Shown in pieces: positions 13,972 to 14,278 of a DNA stretch of 64,000 bases (within the stretch, counting starts at the first letter, position 1; each line of letters opens with the position of its first letter). This DNA is from Escherichia coli (GTDB lineage Bacteria; Pseudomonadota; Gammaproteobacteria; Enterobacterales; Enterobacteriaceae): the NCBI RefSeq assembly GCF_016026235.1, contig NZ_CP065613.1; one strand, given 5' to 3'. Below the pieces are notes generated by a model. The model was not told where the DNA came from and did no database searches. It worked only from the letters and a program-made list of their open reading frames with translations. The position numbers and the translations under genes were made by a program.

Positions 13972-14278
13972 TTGCCGGATGCGGCGTAAAACGCCTTATC
14001 CGGCCTACAGGTGTCTGCCAACGCAAATAAACGCAGCTTTCCCTCTCTGTAGGCACGATAAGCTTGCGCATCGGGCATATGTGTTAACCCGATGCGCCTT
14101 ATATCATGCCGGATGCGGCGCGAGCGCCTTATCCGGCCTACAGGTGTCTGCCAACGCAAATAAACGCAGCTTTCCCTCTCTGTAGGCCCGATAAGCTTGC
14201 GCATCGGGCATATGTGTTGACCCGGTGCGCCTTATATCATGCCGGATGCGGCGCGAGCGCCTTATCCGGCCTACTGGC
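13972..14278. repeat. REP/BIME array: two near-identical tandem units of about 130 bp plus a partial third
   Basis: gccggatgcggcg...ccttatccggcctacaggtgtctgccaacgcaaataaacgcagctttccctctctgtaggc...gataagcttgcgcatcgggcatatgtgtt occurs twice in tandem between pppA and yghJ. Confidence 0.85.

Follow-up and report, generated by a model that had tools for sequence, protein, structure and literature searches.

What fills the 330 nt between sslE (yghJ) and pppA in this Escherichia coli genome, and could it influence the expression of the secretion operon in which it lies? We examined this question in a window of 64,000 nucleotides, which is the whole stretch of DNA analysed (contig NZ_CP065613.1). 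Our answer, which we hold with moderate confidence, is that the spacer carries an atypical BIME whose hairpins would act as exonuclease barriers favouring the sslE message. The structure of the array, its variation among strains and its hairpins are presented below, together with the alternative explanations on which each of them bears.

A tandem REP array fills the sslE-pppA spacer

The preliminary description of this locus reported a composite REP/BIME unit of about 130 bp, tandemly duplicated between pppA and yghJ at 13972-14278. The tandem repeat is real and was correctly identified as REP/BIME. Tandem Repeats Finder located a single tandem array at 13973-14274, with a period of 133, 2.3 copies, 95% matches, no indels and a score of 553, and a repeat search within the window agreed on a unit of 133 bp. 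The two full 133-nt copies (13992-14124 and 14125-14257) are 98% identical, which far exceeds chance expectation, and the REP arms are found in three copies spaced 133-134 nt apart. The two near-identical copies and the partial third one described previously were thus recovered, the latter corresponding to the pppA-proximal y REP at 13973-14008. The earlier coordinates agree with those of the array, which fills the intergenic spacer (13949-14278, 330 nt from the sslE stop codon to the pppA start codon). Comparison with the list of open reading frames placed the array wholly between genes.

On the pppA side, the spacer is bordered by a minus-strand ORF of 269 aa (13139..13948), equal in length to the annotated pppA of related genomes, and on the other side by the intact minus-strand sslE ORF of 1,525 aa (14279..18856). 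The names sslE (yghJ) and pppA follow those given by RefSeq in K-12 and in FDAARGOS_943, a near-identical strain. Since gspS-beta (yghG) and gspC-M are located downstream on the same strand, the window holds a complete type II secretion beta cluster. A 560-aa ORF follows sslE in the window, at the place of glcA in K-12. In FDAARGOS_943, a Mu-like prophage (19355-30101, with Mu transposase, Gam and Mor; compare 18857-19323 of the window) is inserted in the 5′ end of sslE, and the gene is annotated as a pseudogene in that strain.

The K-12 copy at this junction presumably has a REP number; in the MG1655 RefSeq record we found no repeat feature at the sslE-pppA junction. Similarly, no yghJ or pppA entry was present in the REP supplements of PMC3333891 and PMC12306157.

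Organization of the array

We scored the elements against the three REP query strings (y, z1 and z2) printed in PMC11208160 and describe them here in the order in which they occur on the mRNA, which corresponds to the minus strand. The sslE stop codon TAA (14279..14281, minus strand) is followed by GCCA and by the first y-type REP, GTAGGCCGGATAAGGCGCTCGCGCCGCATCCGGCA (14240..14274, minus strand; 32/35 positions of the y consensus). This places the GTAG tetranucleotide 4 nt and the stem, which starts at 14270, 8 nt from the stop codon. A head-to-head spacer of 29 nt comes next and holds a REP remnant (AAGGCGCAYCGGGT); in unit 1 this remnant, read from the sequence as AAGGCGCACCGGGT (14220..14235, minus strand), base-pairs with the 5′ arm of the short REP that follows. 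The short REP itself is carried by the plus strand (GTAGGCCCGATAAGCTTGCGCATCGGGCA, 14182..14210) and therefore appears on the mRNA as an iREP, reading GCCCGATGCGCAAGCTTATCGGGCCTAC. It has the length of z1 and obtained its best score with z1 (25/29) and its lowest with z2, its stem being CCCGAT/ATCGGG versus CCTGAT/ATCAGG in z1. An inverted repeat detected in the repeat search (I2) joins this short REP to the next y REP, and a locus-specific tail-to-tail linker of 40 nt, AGAGAGGGAAAGCTGCGTTTATTTGCGTTGGCAGACACCT on the mRNA (14142..14181, minus strand), lies between the two.

The second 133-nt unit spans 14141-14009 on the mRNA. Its y REP (14107..14141, minus strand; 32/35) and its 40-nt linker (14009..14048, minus strand) are identical to those of unit 1. 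The remnant of unit 2, AAGGCGCATCGGGT (14087..14102, minus strand), and the head of the short REP, GTAGGCACGATAAGCTTGCGCATCGGGCA (14049..14077, plus strand), pair perfectly in an 11-bp hairpin; this short REP shows one stem mismatch with respect to unit 1. The array is closed by a terminal y-type REP with a TTTTA loop (13973..14008, minus strand), which matches the y consensus at 35/35 positions and ends 24 nt upstream of the pppA start codon ATG (13946..13948, minus strand). No obvious Shine-Dalgarno sequence was seen upstream of this codon: the 24 nt in question (AGTTACAACAAATAACCTTTAACC, 13949-13972) contain none that is recognisable. Conservation of these 24 nt extends to all sampled alleles and, apart from four substitutions, to E. 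albertii.

The three y elements thus score 32, 32 and 35 out of 35, as expected for y-type REPs, which are imperfect palindromes of 30-40 nt with a conserved GTAG ahead of the stem and two mismatched bases inside it, and the REP parts of the array are dispersed, high-copy and extragenic. At megablast stringency they matched in 5,403 of 5,426 complete E. coli genomes, with a median of 5 places in each and a maximum of 14. The window contains further REP clusters at 46551-46633 and 57599-57725.

The short REP of unit 1 includes the sequence ATCGGGCCTAC (14182-14192, minus strand), replaced in unit 2 by ATCGTGCCTAC with one mismatch. In E. coli strain 53 (NZ_CP048359.1, L015, 329-1595), a copy of IS621 is located exactly at an ATCGGGCCTAC site, with ATCGGGCCT immediately before and TGTATTATCC immediately after the insertion point; pppA does not adjoin the IS621-bearing site in this strain.

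Alleles of the junction and origin of the duplication

Using the two gene flanks alone as query, we detected the sslE-pppA junction in 3,635 of 5,426 complete E. coli genomes. The comparison of copy number among strains, foreseen in the preliminary description, revealed alleles ranging from sub-unit remnants to one, two and five units. A lack of copy-number variation had been named there as refuting evidence, whereas the variation observed is abundant. Allele shares were estimated from a systematic sample of 59 of the 3,635 junction genomes. Spans of 898-932 nt, corresponding to spacers of 129-163 nt with internally deleted arrays, made up 42/59 (71%); spans of 963-969 nt, corresponding to one unit as in K-12 (197-nt spacer), made up 15/59 (25%), and spans of 1095-1101 nt, with two units, were found in 2/59 (3.4%). 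The counts of the linker search described further below agree with these shares, the K-12-type linker (87.5% identity) occurring in 925 genomes and the window type (at least 95%) in 123. With a 733-nt spacer containing five units in strain 100117, the spacer length ranges from 129 to 733 nt among alleles. In the latter strain (Gambia, NZ_CM128596.1, L004, 1040-1772), the loop region of the y REP contains four additional nucleotides (GGCA) in units 3 and 5; since this insertion is restricted to these two units, the five-unit amplification was not a simple copying of one unit.

The common two-unit alleles, found in O55:H7, O169:H41 ETEC, EC1515, A16 and others, have a spacer of 326 nt. Alignment of the units showed that they combine a fresh first unit with a degenerate terminal one (GGGTCTTC, 4 nt shorter), and that this degenerate unit also closes the five-unit allele. 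Unit 2 of the window appeared in this alignment as a chimera, with a 5′ part of the terminal-unit type and a 3′ part identical to unit 1, from which we infer that it probably arose by gene conversion from unit 1. This homogenised two-unit form of 330 nt is shared only by FDAARGOS_943 among the 60 best-matching genomes. The terminal y REP was recognisable in all sampled alleles with an intact junction, although in the short alleles it has itself undergone internal deletion; in K-12 it has two stem mismatches.

Of the loci found by a cross-species search with PppA in genome contigs, only those of E. albertii and Escherichia sp. E1V33 were informative; 26 others encode distant prepilin peptidases. 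E. albertii NBRC 107761 carries a one-unit array of 197 nt at the sslE-pppA junction, and the 326-nt form is present at the same junction in Escherichia sp. E1V33. Given the E. albertii array at the same position, the element predates the split between E. coli and E. albertii and has been resident at this junction since before that split.

We consider that duplication and homogenisation are best read as products of REP dynamics, through TnpA-REP activity, unequal recombination or gene conversion. The high share of internally deleted alleles (about 71%) and the low share of two-unit alleles (about 3.4%) argue that array length is not under strong selection. Together with the drifting unit number, the prevalence of decayed versions among locus-bearing genomes also suggests that the duplication itself is a by-product of these dynamics and not a selected regulator.

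The strongest rival to the barrier function proposed above sees in the array a neutral or selfish element without any selected effect on the operon, which owes its maintenance and remodelling to the REP-associated transposase TnpA-REP, to slippage, and to unequal crossing-over and gene conversion, the duplication being drift. We regard it as a serious possibility, above all for the duplication, yet one that falls short of probable. The wide variation in copy number and sequence is in line with it, as are the decay of most alleles and the chimeric unit 2, which is consistent with gene conversion. Moreover, many alleles have GTAT in their first REP in place of the GTAG needed for TnpA-REP binding, a replacement that would impair this binding (PMC3333891). 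A neutral resident is less easily reconciled with the maintenance of a REP array at exactly the sslE-pppA junction from E. albertii to E. coli, nor does it account well for the constancy of the first REP.

The first REP and the sslE stop codon

The position of the first REP hairpin, 8 nt past the sslE stop codon, is a well-conserved feature that the preliminary description did not include. Of the 13 E. coli alleles sampled with an intact junction, 11 have 4 nt between the stop codon and the GTAG or GTAT of the first y REP and 8 nt between the stop codon and the stem. Identical spacings (4 and 8 nt) were found in E. albertii and Escherichia sp. E1V33. The distance from stop codon to stem is only 2 nt in the two remaining E. 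coli alleles, PEC1020 and EC38. The stem of the first y REP was intact and near the sslE stop in every sampled allele, the rest of the array being variable. This invariance, together with the long residence of the array, suggests that at least the first hairpin is tolerated or useful. Both PEC1020 and EC38 have different C-terminal sslE codons (…CTGAATAA) and lack the GTAGGCC of the first REP; the 3′ end of sslE and the REP were apparently remodelled together.

According to a passage of PMC12306157 on the work of Liang, Rudd and Deutscher (2015), the upstream gene is translated less when a REP lies fewer than 16 nt from its stop codon. The reduction of upstream protein that characterises this class depends on ribosome stalling and tmRNA. 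Lying 4 nt (GTAG) and 8 nt (stem) from the stop codon, the first REP belongs by its position to the class reported there to dampen translation, and all the sampled sslE stems, whether at 8 or 2 nt, fall inside the under-16-nt interval. By analogy, this first hairpin may moderate SslE translation: being so close to the stop codon, it would stall terminating ribosomes and lower translation of the upstream cistron.

Hairpins, transcript stability and attenuation

The array had been described as lying inside an operon, and published work bears this out. The genes of the sslE-pppA-gspS-beta-gspC-M cluster form one transcriptional unit in ETEC, according to Yang 2007 (cited in a passage of PMC5012682), and tiling arrays of BL21(DE3) are reported to show co-transcription of sslE, pppA, yghG and yghF with the T2S genes (PMC5435950). 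Given this co-transcription, RNA polymerase would read through the array.

The RNA of the whole spacer was predicted to fold with -150.9 kcal/mol (z-score of -6.5 versus shuffled controls), and five strong hairpins were predicted on the mRNA strand. Three correspond to the y REPs, which fold into a 7-bp stem, a 2x2 internal loop and a 4-5-bp stem, with energies in the order of transcription of -20.9 (z-score -3.4), -20.9 and -21.7 kcal/mol (z-score -4.6). The other two are the head hairpins formed by the REP remnants, with -17.6 kcal/mol in unit 1 and -22.6 kcal/mol (z-score -3.8) in unit 2. The 40-nt linkers are unstructured (z-score -0.16).

REPs stabilise upstream mRNA, as stated in a passage of PMC12306157 on Newbury et al. 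(1987). After cleavage of the transcript downstream of the array, its hairpins would similarly block 3′-to-5′ exonucleases. The sslE segment would then outlive the pppA-gsp segment, giving more message for SslE, the substrate, than for the machinery, as in malE-malF; the second unit would probably add little. The resemblance to the intercistronic REPs of malE-malF (Newbury et al. 1987, cited in the same passage of PMC12306157) and to the expression disparity of aceA-aceK (PMC5435950) lies in the presence of strong hairpins after the first, most needed gene of a co-transcribed operon. It also lies in an upstream segment predicted to be more stable than the downstream one. In contrast to malE-malF, the stabilising effect at sslE-pppA is deduced from position in the operon and hairpin strength. 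On the basis of general REP biology, the array could stabilise the sslE mRNA or attenuate pppA/gsp expression, and an effect on the ratio of SslE to secretion machinery appears plausible. In the literature searched, we found no paper linking yghJ to REP sequences; those that mention both sslE and REPs do not connect them.

A more ambitious version, in which the number of BIME units (remnant, 1, 2 or 5) would serve as a lineage-specific rheostat of sslE versus machinery expression, seems to us quite doubtful. If it were true, each added hairpin pair would further stabilise the sslE segment or further cut read-through, and REP amplification and gene conversion would tune the secreted mucinase relative to its secretion machinery between E. 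coli lineages.

Instead of protecting the sslE message, the array might act as a partial transcription attenuator, Rho-dependent or hairpin-induced, cutting pppA-gsp transcription relative to sslE. Attenuation associated with BIMEs has been reported (Espeli, Moulin and Boccard 2001, referenced in a passage of PMC8266576), and an untranslated spacer of 330 nt could in principle let Rho load. However, the hairpins of the mRNA strand are followed by UGAUAUAAGG or AGUUACAACA and not by a U-tract, and scanning of the minus strand from 13000 to 15000 yielded no terminator-like site, which led us to reject an intrinsic terminator. As for Rho, the spacer would be a poor loading site: it is extensively folded, and C does not predominate over G (C 88, G 95), with C minus G never above 5 in any 78-nt window. 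Judged from these features, an intrinsic terminator or an efficient Rho-loading site in the spacer is unlikely. Reported co-transcription through the junction (PMC5435950 and the cited passage of PMC5012682) further weakens the attenuator, which we hold to be unlikely. An internal promoter was also rejected, the promoter scan of the spacer having returned no promoter-like site on the transcribed strand. Attenuation is less likely than a neutral product of REP dynamics, and the same is true of the two alternatives considered below, a DNA-level role and the coding of a small RNA or peptides.

Assignment to a BIME class

Three kinds of BIME are distinguished in PMC3333891. BIME-1 associate z1 and y around a conserved L linker that often binds IHF, and occur in single copy; BIME-2 associate z2 and y around an S linker and occur in tandem copies. 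Atypical BIMEs gather other combinations or chimeras in multiple copies, the tandem copies at one locus being well conserved and their number differing among strains.

The window itself offers references for these classes. A BIME-1-like element at 57560-57745 consists of a z1 REP, a 12-nt S linker, a y REP, the L motif and a z1 REP; it is preceded by a second copy of the L motif of about 36 nt (ACGCAYGAAGATTCAACATGTTGCAATAGATTTT) and thus supplies z1, y and L within the window. At 46553-46633, we observed a single BIME-2-like unit in which a y REP with a degenerate GTAG (CCAG) is joined by an 11-nt S linker to an oppositely oriented z2 REP. Neither the 11-12-nt S linker nor the L motif of these two elements recurs in the sslE-pppA array, whose head-to-head spacer is 29 nt long versus 11-12 nt in the y-S-z elements of the window.

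To characterise the tail-to-tail linker, its 40 nt and 4-5 nt on each side were compared by BLAST with 5,426 complete E. coli genomes. It was present in 1,048 of them, at a median of one place per genome, and the matches listed were all unannotated and at a position consistent with the sslE-pppA junction; with every match listed at this junction, a dispersed motif was rejected. The array does resemble BIME-1 (z1-L-y, the RIP/RIB elements) in that a y REP and a REP of z1 length stand tail to tail around a linker of about 40 nt. It differs in the absence from this linker of the IHF consensus, in the linker not being the dispersed L motif seen at 57560-57745, and in its tandem repetition, BIME-1 being described as single copy. 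No IHF-like site with at most one mismatch to WATCAANNNNTTR was found anywhere in the array. We consequently rejected BIME-1/RIP for want of an IHF-like site and on account of a linker found only at this locus and a tandemly repeated unit. BIME-2 was rejected because the array contains neither a z2-type REP nor a short S-type linker.

The array fits an atypical BIME, to which it was assigned given the absence of an IHF site, a z2 REP and a U-tract terminator. As in the atypical BIMEs of the Bachellier/Gilson classification (per Ton-Hoang et al. 2012, PMC3333891), REP orientation alternates, tandem units are conserved within the locus and vary in number between strains, linkers are varied in length and sequence, and the parts, a non-canonical mix of REPs and linkers, fit neither BIME-1 nor BIME-2. 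Its own particularities with respect to these are a REP remnant in the 29-nt head-to-head spacer, able to form an alternative hairpin with the short REP, a locus-unique 40-nt tail-to-tail linker and the CCCGAT/ATCGGG stem of the short REP.

The same observations bear on a possible role at the DNA level, in which the array would be a gyrase, IHF or HU binding site organising supercoiling downstream of the long sslE gene. Such a role has precedents, BIME-2 having been reported as gyrase targets and BIME-1 as binding IHF. But without z2 REP and short S-type linker the array is not a BIME-2, as comparison with the y-S-z2 unit at 46553-46633 illustrates. It also has no IHF-like site with at most one mismatch and a linker unlike the L motif, and we judge this role very unlikely.

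Repeat-derived open reading frames

The array generates two plus-strand ORFs of 68 aa (13979..14185 and 14106..14312) and one minus-strand ORF of 88 aa, all of them made of repeat sequence. The two 68-aa ORFs had been called spurious from the outset, rightly so: a Pfam search with the three ORFs gave one chance match of 14 bits, versus a cut-off of 25, and nothing for the other two, and a coding role was rejected. The Rfam family naRNA4 (RF02564) matched both strands at 30-36 bits, the best match of 35.9 bits being far under the gathering score of 59.5; this sRNA was rejected too, the family being itself REP-derived, so that the matches only reflect REP similarity. Despite these matches and ORFs, we find it hardly credible that the array specifies small proteins or a small RNA derived from REPs and similar to the nucleoid-associated naRNA4, considering the sub-threshold scores, a spacer devoid of promoter-like sites, the Pfam result and reading frames that cannot be conserved across alleles of 129-733 nt.

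Biological significance

The sslE-pppA array is an ordinary member of the long-known REP/BIME class, with tandem units and copy-number polymorphism as described for this class, and nothing in it calls into question what is currently understood of these elements. In practice, the result bears mainly on annotation, where the 68-aa and 88-aa ORFs should be left out of the gene set and the spacer marked as a REP/BIME array. The sslE-T2SS-beta operon encodes a vaccine candidate and colonisation factor. Intercistronic hairpins provide a cheap and testable explanation for any excess of SslE over the Gsp proteins, and the natural allele series, from remnants to one, two and five units, would make this explanation easy to test.
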